A DNA stretch of 13,180 bases from a virus (taxonomy: Duplodnaviria > Heunggongvirae > Uroviricota > Caudoviricetes). Where the stretch lies: IMG/VR virus record IMGVR_UViG_3300032074_000001, one strand, 5' to 3'. The translations under genes and the position numbers were made by a program. The notes beneath the pieces are model-generated. The model was not told where the DNA came from, made no database searches, and saw only the letters and a list, made by a program, of their open reading frames with translations. Of this stretch, positions 3,751 through 10,949 are shown in pieces (the stretch's first letter is position 1; the number at the start of each line of letters is the position of its first letter).

Positions 3751-4995
3751 ATGGCGTTGCCGTCAGGCGAGAGCCTGCTCATCTCAGCACTGATCAACGT
3801 AGGAAACGTCGAAGAGGCGCTCACCTACGGCATCACCCCGAACTACTTCCGGGGGTACAAGGACGAGTACAACTGGCTGCTGAACTACACCAAGACCTAC
3901 GGTGAGCAGCCCACCCGAGACATCTTCCGGGCACAGTTCTCCTCCTTCCCCATCTCCGAGCACGCCGACGTGCGCAGCGCCTGTGACATGGTGCTGAAGT
4001 CGTACGGCAAGGCACGGCTCACCGAGGCCATGGGCGAGGCCGTGGACCTGATGGGCATGGGCGATCTCCAAGCCGCCTACGCCACACTCACCAAGGCCGA
4101 GCCCCGGTCCACCGCTCCCAAGGCGAAGCGGCTGCTCACCGACCTGACCTTCTTCGACACCTGGGAGGACGACCACCAGGGCGTCGAGGTGCCCTACCGG
4201 GTGATCCAGAAGAACACCGGAGGCATCAAGCCTGGCAACCTCTGGTACCTCGCGGCCCGTCCCGGCAACGGCAAGACGGCCCACCTGTGCAACATCGCGA
4301 CCCGCGCTGTCCTTGATGGAGCGCGGGTCAAGTTTTACTCCCTGGAGATGAGCGAGATGGAGGTCCGGGCGAGGTTCCACGCCGCGCTGGCCACCCACTT
4401 CAAGGTCCCTGGGATCACCATGAACTCGATCCGTGAGCGGACCGTGGACATGTACGAGTACAAGCAGTTCATCTCGGAGTTGGACGAGCGCCTGGACGGC
4501 CACCTCGACATCCACACCCCGCGTGACGGCATCGTGACGCCGGGAACGGTGGCCTCGGTCGCGGAGGACTACCACCTGAACATCGTGGACTACATCGGTC
4601 TGATGCGGTCCGAGGACGGCACCCCCGCGATCAAGGACTGGCGGGTGGCCGCAGAGATCTCCAACCGGATGAAGGAGATCGGGCTAGCGGCCCACACCGG
4701 GATGCTGTGCGCCGCTCAGATCAACCGGGAGGGCGACAGCGGCACTGCCCCGCCCAAGATCTCCCAGCTGTCTCAGAGCGACGCTCTGGCCCAGGACGGG
4801 GACGTGGTGATCACCATGCGAGCCGCGCCCCACAACGTGGCCACCTACCTGTCGCTGGAGAAGAACCGGCACGGCCAGTCCTCCATCCTCACCGCCACCA
4901 CGTTCGACCCGAACACCGGAATCTACCGAACCATCGATCTCACCGAGGTCGATGCCCTTGCCCTAGAAGCCGAGGCCCGTCGCTATGAGCAGTGA
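3751..4995 (+). CDS. dnaB: DnaB-like (SF4) replicative helicase
   Basis: Walker A AARPGNGKT, SLEM, Walker B IVDY, AQINRE, LAQDGD, KNRHG Arg-finger motif. Confidence 0.95.
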   Translation: MALPSGESLLISALINVGNVEEALTYGITPNYFRGYKDEYNWLLNYTKTYGEQPTRDIFRAQFSSFPISEHADVRSACDMVLKSYGKARLTEAMGEAVDLMGMGDLQAAYATLTKAEPRSTAPKAKRLLTDLTFFDTWEDDHQGVEVPYRVIQKNTGGIKPGNLWYLAARPGNGKTAHLCNIATRAVLDGARVKFYSLEMSEMEVRARFHAALATHFKVPGITMNSIRERTVDMYEYKQFISELDERLDGHLDIHTPRDGIVTPGTVASVAEDYHLNIVDYIGLMRSEDGTPAIKDWRVAAEISNRMKEIGLAAHTGMLCAAQINREGDSGTAPPKISQLSQSDALAQDGDVVITMRAAPHNVATYLSLEKNRHGQSSILTATTFDPNTGIYRTIDLTEVDALALEAEARRYEQ

Positions 4996-5128: not shown

Positions 5129-5262
5129 TCTGCGGAGCGATCAGCGACACGCTCTTCGGGCGTGAGCGGTGCAAGGAGGACTCGGATCACCGGGGACCGC
5201 ACTGGCGGAACACCGAGCCGATCTCCTGCGAGTGCAAGTACTTCTGCCGGTGCGAACGGTGA
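5125..5262 (+). CDS. Small Cys/His protein (45 aa) MICGAISDTLFGRERCKEDSDHRGPHWRNTEPISCECKYFCRCER
   Basis: ATGA/GTGA coupling on both sides; C-x12-C-x5-HxGxH pattern. Confidence 0.7.
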   Translation: MICGAISDTLFGRERCKEDSDHRGPHWRNTEPISCECKYFCRCER

Positions 5263-5387
5263 ACCTCTTCCACGAGTTCGGCGCGTGGCTCTTCTTCCAC
5301 GATGTACACATCACCCCGTTCGGGATCGCTGGGTTGTTCTGCCTGTTCTCACTCCTCGACAACTTGATCGAACGGGTGAAGCGGTGA
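5259..5387 (+). CDS. Small membrane protein (42 aa)
   Basis: GTGA coupling on both sides; hydrophobic ITPFGIAGLFCLFSLL. Confidence 0.7.
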   Translation: MNLFHEFGAWLFFHDVHITPFGIAGLFCLFSLLDNLIERVKR

Positions 5388-6322
5388 ACTACGCACACAC
5401 GCTGTCCGAGGCGATCACCAAGGGCCACGGCACCGAGCGCACCTTCCTGTGTCCGGTACACGGCGACAGCCGTCCGTCCGCGAGCCTCAACATCATCAAG
5501 CAGAAGTGGGTCTGCTACACCTGCGGCGCTCACGGTGGTCTCACCGGGGAGGACGCCCTGATGGAGCCCGACTACCTCCAGATGAAGCTGTGGTTCACCG
5601 AGAAGCTGGAGGAGAAGCGTGTCTACCCCGAAGCCTGGCTCGCCCGCTGGGACGCAGGACCCGTCCACCCTTACTGGACCGCTCGTGTTGGAGACGATGC
5701 GGCGCGTCACTTCCGCCTTGGTGCTGACCCAGCAGCAGATGCGGTCACTTATCCCCTACGTCGAACGGATGGGGCAGTCCTGGGAGTCGTTCGCCGCCGC
5801 CTACAACCTGATGGTGGTCCCAAGTACCTCTATCCCAAGGGCATCGACGTGGGGCGGCTTCTCTTTAACTACAGCCCTGTACGACGAACTGCCGTCGTTC
5901 TCGTGGAGGGAGCCCTGGACGCCATCGCCCTATGGAACGTCGGAGTGGAAGCGTTCGCGATCTACGGTTCTCGACTTGGTGCGGAGCAGGTGCGCCTCAT
6001 CGACCGGATCGACCCCGACTACGTGTTCACCGCGTTCGACAACGATGACGCTGGCTACCGCGCTCACCGAGACGTGGAGCAGGCCATGCGGCACCGGCTC
6101 GTGTCCCGCATCACCTGGCCCGCTTCCTGGGGCAAGGACGTGGACGAGATCGGACCGGCACGCCTGAAAAATGTTGTGCATGACGTACTTGCGCTGACCA
6201 ACAGTGCATGTATAGAGTCTCCGTCATGCAGATCGCACGAAACATCGACAGCGAAGAGCAAGAAGCCCTCCTCCGTTACGTCCACGCGAAGCGGGATGCG
6301 GATCAAGCGATCCGCCGCGTAG
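5384..6322 (+). CDS. dnaG: DNA primase (CHC2 zinc finger + TOPRIM)
   Basis: CPVHGDSRPS...WVCYTCG zinc finger; PKY; TOPRIM VLVEGALD and AFDNDDAG; GTG 5384 coupled to upstream TGA. Confidence 0.93.
   Translation: MNYAHTLSEAITKGHGTERTFLCPVHGDSRPSASLNIIKQKWVCYTCGAHGGLTGEDALMEPDYLQMKLWFTEKLEEKRVYPEAWLARWDAGPVHPYWTARVGDDAARHFRLGADPAADAVTYPLRRTDGAVLGVVRRRLQPDGGPKYLYPKGIDVGRLLFNYSPVRRTAVVLVEGALDAIALWNVGVEAFAIYGSRLGAEQVRLIDRIDPDYVFTAFDNDDAGYRAHRDVEQAMRHRLVSRITWPASWGKDVDEIGPARLKNVVHDVLALTNSACIESPSCRSHETSTAKSKKPSSVTSTRSGMRIKRSAA
5619..6167 (+). CDS. Putative overprinted ORF in the +1 frame of primase (182 aa)
   Basis: SD GGAGG 6 nt before GTG 5619; 28/46 primase codons at 5681-5818 end in A/T versus 7/77 before the ORF start. 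Confidence 0.55.
   Translation: MSTPKPGSPAGTQDPSTLTGPLVLETMRRVTSALVLTQQQMRSLIPYVERMGQSWESFAAAYNLMVVPSTSIPRASTWGGFSLTTALYDELPSFSWREPWTPSPYGTSEWKRSRSTVLDLVRSRCASSTGSTPTTCSPRSTTMTLATALTETWSRPCGTGSCPASPGPLPGARTWTRSDRHA
6189..6218 (+). promoter_or_regulatory. Promoter inside primase 3' end, driving a leaderless mRNA
   Basis: TTGCGC-N18-TAGAGT, 7 nt before ATG 6226; no SD. Confidence 0.6.
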
Positions 6323-8098: not shown

Positions 8099-8171
8099 TG
8101 GGACGTAGCTCAGCTGGCAGAGCGCCCGACTGTTAATCGGGTGGTCGCAGGTTCGAATCCTGCCGTCTCAG
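8099..8171 (+). tRNA. tRNA-Asn (GTT), CCA not encoded
   Basis: Acceptor TGGGACG/CGTCTCA, D arm, anticodon arm CCCGA-CTGTTAA-TCGGG, T loop GGTTCGAATCC, discriminator G. Confidence 0.96.
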
Positions 8172-8173
8172 CG

Positions 8174-8252: not shown

Positions 8253-10949
8253 ATGCAGATCGTACGGACGCCGAAGCGGCGGATGCAGATCCAGCGGACG
8301 CCTCGCTGGTGGTCTCTCCACACGCACTCGCGGTACTCCAACAACGACGCGCTCCCGGCTGTGTCTGACATCGTGGCGAAGGCCGCAGCCTTGGGCCAGA
8401 AGGCTGTAGGTCTCACCGACCATGGCAACATGGCCGGGAGCGTGGAGCTGTACCAGGCGTGCAAGAAGCATGGTCTGGCCCCCTTCCCTGGGTCAGAGAT
8501 GTACTTCGTGCCCGACATCTCGCAGCACAAGAAGGACTACGCCGACAAGAACAAGAAGGCGTCCAGGTTCCACCTGGGCGTGGTCGCGTACTCCACCGAG
8601 GGCTACGAGAACCTGGTGCGGCTGTCCACGGTGAGCCACCAGCAGCACTTCCACAAGCCGCTGGTGGACTTCACAACCCTGGCTCAGTTGGCGGACGATG
8701 GTCGGACCAAGGGTCTGGCGATCACCACCGGGTGCTACTTCGGCTACGCGGTGCAGACCCTCGTCAACGAGGGGGATGAGGCAGTTGAGCGCTACCTCGC
8801 CACGCTGGAGTCATGGTTCCCCGAGTCGGTCTACGTCGAGATTCAGAACCATCACATCGATCACGATGATCACTGGTGCGATGATCTCGTTGCCGATCAA
8901 CTTGTGGATGTTGCGGATCGCATGGGACTTCCTGTGGTCATCACGCAGGATTCGCACTACCTAGAGCCTGAGGACAAGAGTGACCACGAGGCCCTCAAAC
9001 GACTCGTCGCCTTCGGACCCGAAGCAGACGATGCAGTCTTCCCCGGTGATGGCTTTCAGTTCGGAACTGAGGACTGGATCAGAGACCATCACCGTGACCA
9101 TCGGCTTGCGCGAGGACTGGAAGGACTGGACCATCTCCTCGCTCGCCATGAACTCCGAATCCCGGTCCTTGACTCTTACTCTTACGCGGTCCCCGCAGTC
9201 GTAGCCAGCCCGCAGCAGGCCATGGAGGATCGCTGTCGGCAGGCGCTGGCGGCGAAGGATCTCTACACGCCCAAGTACATCGACAAGCTGACCGAGGAGT
9301 TCGACACCATCAAGGCGTCGGACATGGCTGGCTACATGATGCTGGTGGCCATGGTGACCGACTGGCTCACCGAGGAGGGCGTGCCGTTCCAGACCCGTGG
9401 CTCTGCCGCTGGCTCCCTGGTGTGCTGGCTGTTGGGGATCACCCAGGTGGACCCGATCAAGTGGGACCTGCGCTTCGACCGGTTCTTGTCCAAGGACCGC
9501 ACCAAGCCCCCGGACATCGACCTGGACATCGCCCACGACCGGCGTCAGGAGCTGATCGACATGCTCGACACCCGGTTCTCGGCGCACCAGATCGGCTCCT
9601 GGGCCACCTACGGCATGGACAACGACGAGGGTGAGGACAAGGGCTCGCTGCTGAAGCGGTACTTCAGCCGCAACAAGCACCGGGAGAACCCCATCGAGAA
9701 GTGGGAGGACATCCCCGAGGCCGACCGCAAGATGCTCTACCGGCTCTCGGACCGGAACCTGTTCTCCGGGATGGGCACCAACGCGGCGGGCGTGGTGATC
9801 ACCAGCACCAAGGAGGAGTTCGACCGACTGGTCCCGCTGGCCTACATGAACCGTGGCGGCTTCGTCACCCAGTACTCCAAGGACGACATCGAGGCACTGG
9901 GCCTGGTGAAGCTGGACGTGCTGGGGTCCAAGACCCTGACCGTGCTGCGCCGCACCATGGACAACCTGGACCTGCCGGTCTCGGCGCTGCTGGAGATCCC
10001 GCTGGGGGACAGACCCACCTTCTCCTTCATGCGCAAGGGCGACACCGCTGGCATCTTCCAGCTGGAGGGCTACACCTCGGCCAAGGGTGTGAAGCGGCTG
10101 CGTCCGAGCAGCATCAAGGACGTGATCGCAGCCATGGCGCTGTTCCGCCCCGGCGCGATGATCAGCGGAGGCACCGACGCCTTCATCCGCCGCAAGCACC
10201 GGGAGGAGCAGGTGCCCGAGCGACACGCCTTGGTCTCTCGGGTCACCGCCTCTACCTACGGGGTGATGCTGTACCAGGAGCAGGTTATCGACATCCTGCG
10301 TGGCCTGGGCATGGACGCCGACAACCTCACCAAGTTCCTGAAGGCAGTCAAGGCGTCGAACAAGAACATCGGAGCAGCCGCCGAGGTGATCGCCTCCTAC
10401 AAGGGCTGGATCGATGACAAGACCACCGAGATGGGGATGAGCGATGAGGACAAGAGGTTCTTGGACGAGTCGATCCAGGGGTTCAGCGAGTACGGCTTCA
10501 ACCGGGCGCACGCGACGGTTTACGGTCTTACTGCTTACCGCTGTGCTTGGCTGGCTGTTCACCACGGCGTTGAGTTCCACGCTGCTCTTCTTGCTGTGGC
10601 GGCGGGCGATCCAAAGAAGGAACCCGGCTACGTTACGGCTACTCGTAGGCGAGGGATCAAGATCAGCCGAGCCGACATCAACGTCAGCGGAGCCACCTAC
10701 ACCGTTGATCGGCGCACTGCGAGCATCCGGCGCGGTCTCCAGTCTCTTGACGGAATCGGAGAGACGGTTGCTGCCGCCGTGGTGGGAGCAAGAGCGGACC
10801 GACCGTTCGCAGATGTCGCAGATCTGGTGCGACGAGTACCTGCGCGACCTGTGAGCGGCGGCAAGAACTACGCCAAGGAGGGCCTCGACGGGCTCACCGG
10901 GGTGCTGCGCAAGCTGTACGAACAGCACGCACTGGACTCGATCCTGTGA
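8253..10949 (+). CDS. dnaE: DNA polymerase III alpha subunit (DnaE-like), compact, PHP intact
   Basis: PHP HTH..D, TDHG, GSE, FHL, TTGC, QDSH; RGSAAGS; PDIDLD; KLDVLG; GIFQLE; YQEQ; YGFNRAH; HhH GLQSLDGIG. Confidence 0.97.
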   Translation: MQIVRTPKRRMQIQRTPRWWSLHTHSRYSNNDALPAVSDIVAKAAALGQKAVGLTDHGNMAGSVELYQACKKHGLAPFPGSEMYFVPDISQHKKDYADKNKKASRFHLGVVAYSTEGYENLVRLSTVSHQQHFHKPLVDFTTLAQLADDGRTKGLAITTGCYFGYAVQTLVNEGDEAVERYLATLESWFPESVYVEIQNHHIDHDDHWCDDLVADQLVDVADRMGLPVVITQDSHYLEPEDKSDHEALKRLVAFGPEADDAVFPGDGFQFGTEDWIRDHHRDHRLARGLEGLDHLLARHELRIPVLDSYSYAVPAVVASPQQAMEDRCRQALAAKDLYTPKYIDKLTEEFDTIKASDMAGYMMLVAMVTDWLTEEGVPFQTRGSAAGSLVCWLLGITQVDPIKWDLRFDRFLSKDRTKPPDIDLDIAHDRRQELIDMLDTRFSAHQIGSWATYGMDNDEGEDKGSLLKRYFSRNKHRENPIEKWEDIPEADRKMLYRLSDRNLFSGMGTNAAGVVITSTKEEFDRLVPLAYMNRGGFVTQYSKDDIEALGLVKLDVLGSKTLTVLRRTMDNLDLPVSALLEIPLGDRPTFSFMRKGDTAGIFQLEGYTSAKGVKRLRPSSIKDVIAAMALFRPGAMISGGTDAFIRRKHREEQVPERHALVSRVTASTYGVMLYQEQVIDILRGLGMDADNLTKFLKAVKASNKNIGAAAEVIASYKGWIDDKTTEMGMSDEDKRFLDESIQGFSEYGFNRAHATVYGLTAYRCAWLAVHHGVEFHAALLAVAAGDPKKEPGYVTATRRRGIKISRADINVSGATYTVDRRTASIRRGLQSLDGIGETVAAAVVGARADRPFADVADLVRRVPARPVSGGKNYAKEGLDGLTGVLRKLYEQHALDSIL
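8698..8964 (+). CDS. Putative overprinted single-TM protein in +1 frame of dnaE (88 aa; alternative start ATG 8776)
   Basis: 17/32 dnaE codons at 8841-8936 end in A/T; +1 frame reads ITSITMITGAMISLPINLWMLRIAWDFLW-SSRR. Confidence 0.55.
   Translation: MVGPRVWRSPPGATSATRCRPSSTRGMRQLSATSPRWSHGSPSRSTSRFRTITSITMITGAMISLPINLWMLRIAWDFLWSSRRIRTT
8980..9204 (+). CDS. Putative overprinted soluble protein in +1 frame of dnaE (74 aa)
   Basis: SD GAGGA 5 nt before GTG 8980; 31/74 dnaE codons at 8982-9203 end in A/T; stop made by rare GTA codon. Confidence 0.5.
   Translation: MTTRPSNDSSPSDPKQTMQSSPVMAFSSELRTGSETITVTIGLREDWKDWTISSLAMNSESRSLTLTLTRSPQS
10444..10854 (+). CDS. Putative overprinted single-TM protein in +1 frame of dnaE (136 aa)
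   Basis: 15/26 dnaE codons at 10518-10595 end in T, giving RR-FTVLLLTAVLGWLFTTALSSTLLFLLW-RR; codon bias reverts right after the TGA. Confidence 0.65.
   Translation: MRTRGSWTSRSRGSASTASTGRTRRFTVLLLTAVLGWLFTTALSSTLLFLLWRRAIQRRNPATLRLLVGEGSRSAEPTSTSAEPPTPLIGALRASGAVSSLLTESERRLLPPWWEQERTDRSQMSQIWCDEYLRDL

Follow-up and report, generated by a model that had tools for sequence, protein, structure and literature searches.

A conserved and probably translated +1 reading frame inside the dnaE-like gene of uncultured soil and rhizosphere phages

A +1 frame kept open inside dnaE

The stretch of DNA considered here, a window of 13,180 nucleotides (nt) whose numbering is used throughout, is part of a 40.6-kb viral record of IMG/VR (IMGVR_UViG_3300032074_000001), and it carries, at 8253-10949 on the plus strand, a gene for a DnaE-like DNA polymerase III alpha of 898 amino acids. 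The Pfam domains of this protein follow one another in the order PHP, DNA_pol3_alpha, finger, and HhH, all four of them above their gathering thresholds, and its homologs number more than 4,600. Within the PHP-domain part of the gene, on the same strand and in the +1 frame (dnaE itself being frame 0), lies an open reading frame (ORF) at 8698-8964 that encodes 88 amino acids from an ATG at 8698 or 62 from an ATG at 8776, and that a preliminary description, made from the letters of this DNA alone, took to be a small membrane protein nested in the polymerase gene. Comparison with related phages gives the ORF a different setting. In most members of the clade, the +1 frame forms a single ORF of about 106 codons, running from an internal ATG near 8881 to a TAG near 9201 and kept free of stops by selection, and the reading we favor, with a probability of roughly 0.6, is that the flagged ORF is a piece of this conserved, probably translated, overprinted frame, split in this phage. 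It is the comparative tests that carry the evidence, not the ORF itself.

The relatives are uncultured phages of soil and rhizosphere. Codon alignments were built from about 130 related dnaE loci, and the core comparison was made on 30 non-redundant phage dnaE genes (clade A+B), whose DnaE proteins are 58-82% identical. Cultured phages gave no DNA match, and the best tblastn matches, to Gordonia phages at 36% amino-acid identity, are too distant for a test of the frame. Across 8832-9195, the 30 genes hold 5 stops in the +1 frame against about 72 expected, which is the open frame that overprinting calls for. In half-overlapping windows of 60 codons, the +1 stop ratio is 0.28, 0.06, and 0.06 in this part of the gene and 0.69-1.35 elsewhere in it, except at 10500-10850.

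The avoidance of stops depends on context, i.e., codons are shunned where the next base would complete a stop in the +1 frame. At 8884-9195, only 1 of 30 A-ending Leu, Val, Ile, or Phe codons (in 16 alignment columns) stands before A or G, the sole case being the CTA-G of this phage, while C- or T-ending codons for the same residues stand before A or G in 377 of 624 instances; for G-ending codons, a following A occurs in 2 of 169. The odds ratios for stop-forming pairs are 0.02 and 0.06 inside this interval and 0.41 and 0.86 outside it, and at alignment column 8904, GTA is found only before C or T. Since only translation is sensitive to stop codons, selection against them suggests that ribosomes read the +1 frame, a conclusion to be held with caution, as the sequences are interrelated.

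The end of the frame is conserved as well, and an ATG at its head recurs in most of the genes. In 27 of the 30, an ATG opens a +1 ORF of 105-113 codons that closes at 9198-9204; this ATG falls at alignment position 8878-8884 in 25 genes and at 8863 in two more, and in most relatives of 58-70% identity, a GAGG-type motif stands 8-11 nt before it. The end stop at 9198-9204 is formed by the rare pair GTA-G at one or the other of two adjacent Val codons, with GTA at 9198 in 13 of the 30 genes and at 9201 in 15. On the DnaE tree, this stop has undergone at least about 15 changes of state, with sister taxa often differing, and it is kept in 32 of 34 ingroup genes.

Toward its end, the frame coincides with a peak of synonymous constraint in dnaE at 9093-9190 (codon identity observed/expected = 1.79, z = 3.7, rank 3 of 868), where rare codons are fixed across the clade. 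The codons CTT, CGA, GGA, GAA, GGA, GAT, CTC CTC, CTT, and TCT, at 9105-9174, are each fixed in 21-29 of the 30 genes, and the phage of this record retains all the fixed rare codons of the stretch. More generally, codon usage in the region is shifted, for Leu and Val from G-ending to C- or T-ending codons and for Gly, Arg, Thr, and Pro to A-ending ones. The same DnaE motifs occur in high-GC relatives below 58% identity, there with ordinary codon mixtures and with +1 stops. A preference for optimal C-ending codons at invariant residues was considered as the sole cause of the pattern and rejected, the pattern being absent from other conserved motifs and from the high-GC distant relatives.

Constraint concentrated in the roughly 110 nt that lead up to the +1 stop would also suit an arrangement that is not a separate gene at all. 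Either programmed +1 frameshifting would give the PHP-domain protein a different tail, or 9093-9204 would act in cis as an RNA or DNA element. The same 9093-9204 stretch contains purine runs resembling Shine-Dalgarno (SD) motifs, conserved CTT codons, and a CGAGGAG...CTCCTCG complement, and dnaX provides a precedent, as its programmed frameshift yields tau and gamma, i.e., two products by recoding from a replicase gene. The likeness to dnaX, a replicative polymerase gene with a second product read in another frame, is accompanied by a difference, in that no slippery heptamer or stimulatory structure was found here, no systematic scan for slippery sites having been made. The conserved internal ATG and the split forms described below point to separate initiation rather than to a frameshift of the dnaX type, and in the split genomes, the downstream half of the frame is open even though the stop at 8962 would have halted any shifted ribosome before it got there. 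A nucleic-acid element, for its part, would not account for some 100 codons upstream of it in which stops are avoided according to context; RNAalifold gave only -7 kcal/mol on 9087-9212, with no covariation, and the fold of the single sequence at 8820-8970 had a z of -0.53. We consider either version very improbable. A review of recoding, moreover, does not mention dnaE (PMC5009743).

Two further observations belong to this part of the account. At 9108-9145, an SD-like CGAGGA(G) is followed by its perfect complement, CTCCTCG, both of them almost without variation, and a possible hairpin between them is not supported by covariation. Farther along dnaE, at 10444-10854, lies a second region depleted of +1 stops (ratios of 0.22-0.56; 5 stops versus 26.5 expected at 10527), which coincides with T-ending patches at 10518 and 10746 and with a +1 ORF of 136 amino acids.

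The flagged ORF and its codon patch

The preliminary description had pointed to unusual codon usage in the flagged interval, and its observations were borne out on recounting. All eight Asp codons at 8841-8936, the core of a patch of T-ending codons, are GAT, and they fall within a run in which 11 Asp codons in succession are GAT (8697-8951, or 8697-8949 by codon position), where the Asp codons elsewhere in dnaE are 10 GAT and 57 GAC and those of the whole record 138 GAT and 595 GAC (Fisher p = 4.5e-8; p = 5e-6 by permutation of run lengths). Likewise, 17 of the 32 codons at 8841-8936 end in A or T, an excess greater than in any other 32-codon window of dnaE and about the fourth largest among some 280 non-overlapping windows in the record. 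The peptide quoted for the +1 frame is as was read, both ATGs are present, and the TAG does arise from a rare Leu codon, the CTA at 8961, a codon used just once for the 83 Leu residues of DnaE, and the G that follows it. The sequence, TAG included, is identical in contigs from two soil metagenome runs, from which the record itself may derive, and 8674-8944 is identical in a contig from a third run. No RNA dataset is listed as holding the flagged stretch, which is carried by DNA contigs only.

Several causes of the patch other than a second coding function were considered and set aside. Across the record, the choice of GAT follows the next base, GAT being used before A in 1 of 152 instances, before T in 4 of 116, and before C or G in 26-31%; as the sole cause of the run, this context fails, the run still having p ~1e-4 after correction for it. 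A GATC or iteron element was suggested by 5 GATC in 62 bp, but the window as a whole has 126 against a Markov expectation of 130, and there are no repeats or tandem arrays. No internal promoter or terminator was found, the fold of 8820-8970 cited above and an Rfam search, which matched only a tRNA, gave no RNA structure, and the identity of the patch to each close relative is not raised as it would be in a tract recently recombined from a lower-GC relative. Conservation of the run had been proposed as a check: the nine closest genes are enriched in GAT along this stretch (odds ratios of about 3-8; 1.2 in L167), and the complete run occurs in none of the relatives.

The geometry of the two frames bears on how such a patch should be read. 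The third position of a dnaE codon is the second position of a +1 codon, and with T the latter codon stands for Ile, Met, Leu, Phe, or Val, and never for a stop; T-ending third positions in dnaE thus yield hydrophobic, stop-free +1 codons automatically, and GAT followed by G in addition creates a +1 ATG. Across the record, the excess of T at third positions correlates with the hydropathy of the +1 frame (r = 0.68). In synonymous shuffles of dnaE, a +1 ORF of at least 88 amino acids starting with ATG occurs in 53%, and the flagged interval is stop-free in 12%; over the whole gene, +1 stops number 21 against 22.8 expected from the shuffles, and the window contains 104 ORFs of at least 50 amino acids. 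The protein of the flagged ORF belongs to no Pfam family and has no homolog among 5.8 billion proteins. The length of the flagged ORF is within chance, and by itself, the ORF is weak evidence. For the same geometric reason, that T in the shared position never gives a stop, the GAT run and the T-ending codons also fit the favored reading of a selected +1 frame.

These relations invite the explanation that the ORF is an untranslated by-product, in which a local patch of T- or A-ending codons, whether due to the codon-usage landscape, to context bias, or to drift, opens the +1 frame, and in which the openness throughout the family reflects inherited, site-specific codon preferences in highly conserved PHP motifs. 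The frequency of long ORFs in the shuffles and the record-wide correlation both speak for it, as does the failure to find homologs of the +1 protein. The profile of A/T-ending excess is common to the clades (r = 0.75-0.80, or about 0.7 when corrected for context), and its peaks along dnaE, at about 8840, 9030-9075, 10500-10530, and 10710-10755, make the flagged patch one of four. Leu and Val codons ending in G are scarce also at sites where they would do no harm (0.10-0.17 versus 0.56), and synonymous sites across 8697-9000 are conserved at an average level or below (z = -1.7 to +0.5), i.e., the flagged interval shows no synonymous constraint. What a by-product leaves unexplained is that A-ending Leu and Val codons in 16 columns occur only before C or T, that the rare GTA-G stop persists although it has moved repeatedly from one of two codons to the other, that equally conserved DnaE motifs elsewhere show no depletion of stops, and that high-GC relatives below 58% identity use ordinary codons in the same motifs. 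On balance, we judge this explanation unlikely, although it is the one of the alternatives to the overprinted frame that we would least readily dismiss.

The split at 8962 and the predicted product

In this phage, the ORF of the family is split by the TAG at 8962-8964, formed by CTA (8961-8963) and the next G. On the near side of the stop is a piece of 27 codons plus the TAG from the conserved ATG (8881-8964), and on the far side is the downstream half of the frame, 8980-9204, which ends in the TAG at 9202-9204 and for which candidate restarts are a GTG at 8980, with GAGGA 6 nt upstream of it, and ATGs at 9031 and 9049. A stop at the same codon is found in L166 and L168, as CTA-G, and in L165, where CTG-AAC gives TGA. 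Fitch parsimony assigns two origins to the stop, one in this phage and one in the subclade of L165, L166, and L168; the nearest relative of this phage, L003, does not have it. The codon, that of Leu237, is CTC, CTG, CTT, or GTN in 26 of the 30 clade A+B genes and in L167, and there the frame runs on to about 9201.

The idea that the stop itself is selected, which had been put forward from the rarity of CTA, thus gains something from its recurrence at this codon in four of the nine closest relatives, with two origins and two codon pairs, but overall it is present in only 4 of 34 genes. Both halves of the frame are open in the four split genomes, with no +1 stops against 3.9 expected at 8884-8958 and none against 5.2 expected at 8964-9195, and in each of these genomes, a start codon accompanied by an SD-like motif lies 15-24 nt past the stop. 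In the favored reading, the flagged piece would be an N-terminal module, of 27 amino acids when begun at the conserved ATG and of up to 62-88 when begun at the non-conserved ATGs upstream, and the C-terminal module of the split genomes would be made by re-initiation, in this phage at GTG 8980 or at ATG 9031 or 9049. The maintained frame, its conserved end stop, the split, and the local shift in codon usage are observed directly, whereas translation, re-initiation, and any function are what we infer from such sequence comparisons.

Relatives with GAC and CTG codons and a broken +1 frame had been named as what would overturn the proposal, and they exist for part of the interval only. At 8697-8808, 25 genes contain 26 +1 stops against 18.7 expected, and the frame is broken in most relatives; downstream of about 8841, it is almost always open. 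Neither of the proposed starts, at 8698 and 8776, is conserved among the relatives, nor does either have a properly spaced SD motif in this phage.

These results bear directly on the proposal as it was originally made, that of an autonomous single-pass membrane mini-protein of 62-88 amino acids (8698 or 8776 to 8964), with its own stop selected and the GAT run selected for hydrophobicity. Some of what was found agrees with it. The GAT run (8697-8949) closely matches the extent of the ORF, and the stop at the 8962 codon arose twice; L166, whose DnaE is 75% identical, has an ORF of exactly 88 amino acids, and those of L165 and L168 are of 61 and 68. The split genomes have more hydrophobic 19-residue windows (1.25-1.71), and at 8697-8775, they contain 1 +1 stop against 3.3 expected, the unsplit genomes having 7 against 5.3. 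This is, however, a small sample of four split genomes and two origins, and GAT is enriched to the same degree (odds ratio 3-8) in close relatives that do not have the stop; the interval, as noted, is not under synonymous constraint. The best 19-residue window of this phage has a Kyte-Doolittle value of 1.45, below the usual 1.6, and the segment holds Pro, Gly, Asn, and several Ser and Thr residues, while the 19 residues from the conserved ATG at 8881 contain Arg and Asp and average about 1.1 in hydropathy when calculated by hand. Among relatives, the hydrophobic window has values of 0.87-1.71 in the nine closest and -0.35 to -0.07 in the four next tested (65-69% identical), and more distant members in which the frame is still protected have +1 N-termini rich in Trp and Arg. 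The transmembrane character claimed for the peptide is therefore not upheld, membrane insertion is not supported by the sequences, and we think it quite unlikely that the flagged ORF is an autonomous membrane protein. What stands of the original interpretation is a selected +1 frame at this place and a recurrent stop; boundaries giving 62-88 amino acids, transmembrane character, and selection on the GAT run were not established.

The product of the overprinted frame is predicted to consist of an N-terminal helix that is Trp-rich or hydrophobic, a linker rich in Ser, Thr, Pro, and Arg, and a constrained, beta-rich C-terminal part, where the +1 peptide of 9093-9204 contains LREEWKDW. An AlphaFold2 model from an alignment of 27 +1 ORFs has a mean predicted local distance difference test score (pLDDT) of 57, and its C-terminal half contains four strands at a pLDDT of 64-79. 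A fold search with the model gave no match at E <=0.001 in BFVD or the PDB. When a profile of the 27 ORFs was compared with 1.84 billion representatives, the matches were frameshifted pieces of dnaE from error-prone assemblies and low-complexity noise. On a 75-kb ENA contig (L169:2360-5001), the annotation breaks dnaE into fragments and lists the +1 ORF as a protein of 109 amino acids, which looks like the outcome of indel errors in a long-read assembly and not like a stand-alone gene.

A number of observations weigh against the favored reading, and they are best considered together. The relatives are phylogenetically non-independent, so that the p-values are overstated. T-rich third positions are alone enough to yield open and hydrophobic +1 frames, as the correlation of 0.68 illustrates. 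Within the flagged interval, it is only openness that is conserved and not sequence, in keeping with the average or lower conservation of its synonymous sites. An ATG near 8881 is fairly often expected from GAT-G usage in an acidic loop of DnaE, and in this phage, no SD-like motif stands ahead of that ATG. The +1 peptide is rich in Ser, Thr, Arg, Trp, and Pro, as is usual for off-frame GC-rich DNA; in the model, the helix at residues 3-17 is of low confidence and residues 19-49 are disordered. Finally, the profile search found no stand-alone homolog among the representatives, which would suit a gene of de novo origin as well as the absence of any gene.

A more specific version of the overprinted frame can be put together from the split genomes. 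In it, a de novo gene would be translated and would twice have been split into a hydrophobic mini-protein and a beta-rich peptide, the latter made by re-initiation about 15-24 nt further on, with selection on the hydrophobic piece driving the run of GAT and T-ending codons. We regard this only as a tentative elaboration, more doubtful than not.

Genomic setting, known systems, and meaning

The dnaE-like gene sits in a phage replication module with a DnaB-like helicase (3751-4995) and a primase (5162-6322), and directly upstream of it, at 8099-8172, is a tRNA-Asn (GTT) identified by Rfam (71.6 bits) and ARAGORN. An identical DnaE is present on a 77-kb contig. At the N-terminus of DnaE (8253-8312), a motif is duplicated in tandem, MQIVRTPKRR followed by MQIQRTPRWW, with two in-frame ATGs, an arrangement that the family consensus shares; the start given here for dnaE is tentative. 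On the opposite strand, an ORF of 655 amino acids (8961-10928, minus strand) covers most of dnaE, which is typical of GC-rich coding DNA.

Known cases of embedded phage genes resemble the frame in some ways and differ from it in others. Gene E of phiX174 and G4, phages with 5-kb single-stranded DNA genomes, lies in the +1 frame inside gene D and encodes a proven single-pass membrane lysis protein. Like E, the frame described here is a small same-strand +1 ORF lying wholly inside another gene, attributable to overprinting, with a predicted hydrophobic N-terminal helix; unlike E, it is housed in a polymerase gene, dnaE, of a double-stranded DNA genome of tailed-phage size, its hydrophobicity is below threshold, and it is split. 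Rz1 of lambda, a lipoprotein with a signal peptide and a lipobox that works together with Rz, likewise starts on its own and lies in the +1 frame wholly within a larger phage gene, but the +1 peptide here has no lipobox and no lysis context, and it sits in a replication module. The shadow ORFs of GC-rich DNA are matched in the off-frame type of peptide composition and in the many ORFs of the window, and they differ from the present case in its context-specific avoidance of stops and in the conservation of its start and stop across relatives of 58-82% identity. Searches of the literature turned up no description of an ORF lying inside a phage dnaE.

For scans based on sequence only, the locus holds a caution, as T-ending codons in a GC-rich gene create stop-free +1 ORFs that look like transmembrane proteins. 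Its broader interest is that overprinted genes are well documented in tiny phages and have rarely been shown in large double-stranded DNA phages, where annotation pipelines drop them, and that here the comparative signals, namely stop avoidance, a switching end stop, and natural splits, are unusually clean and lie inside an essential polymerase gene. If the frame is translated, it would be a young gene whose birth could be dated on the tree, being present in relatives with at least 58% DnaE identity and absent below that, and it would provide a test case for the constraint that dual coding places on the PHP domain.

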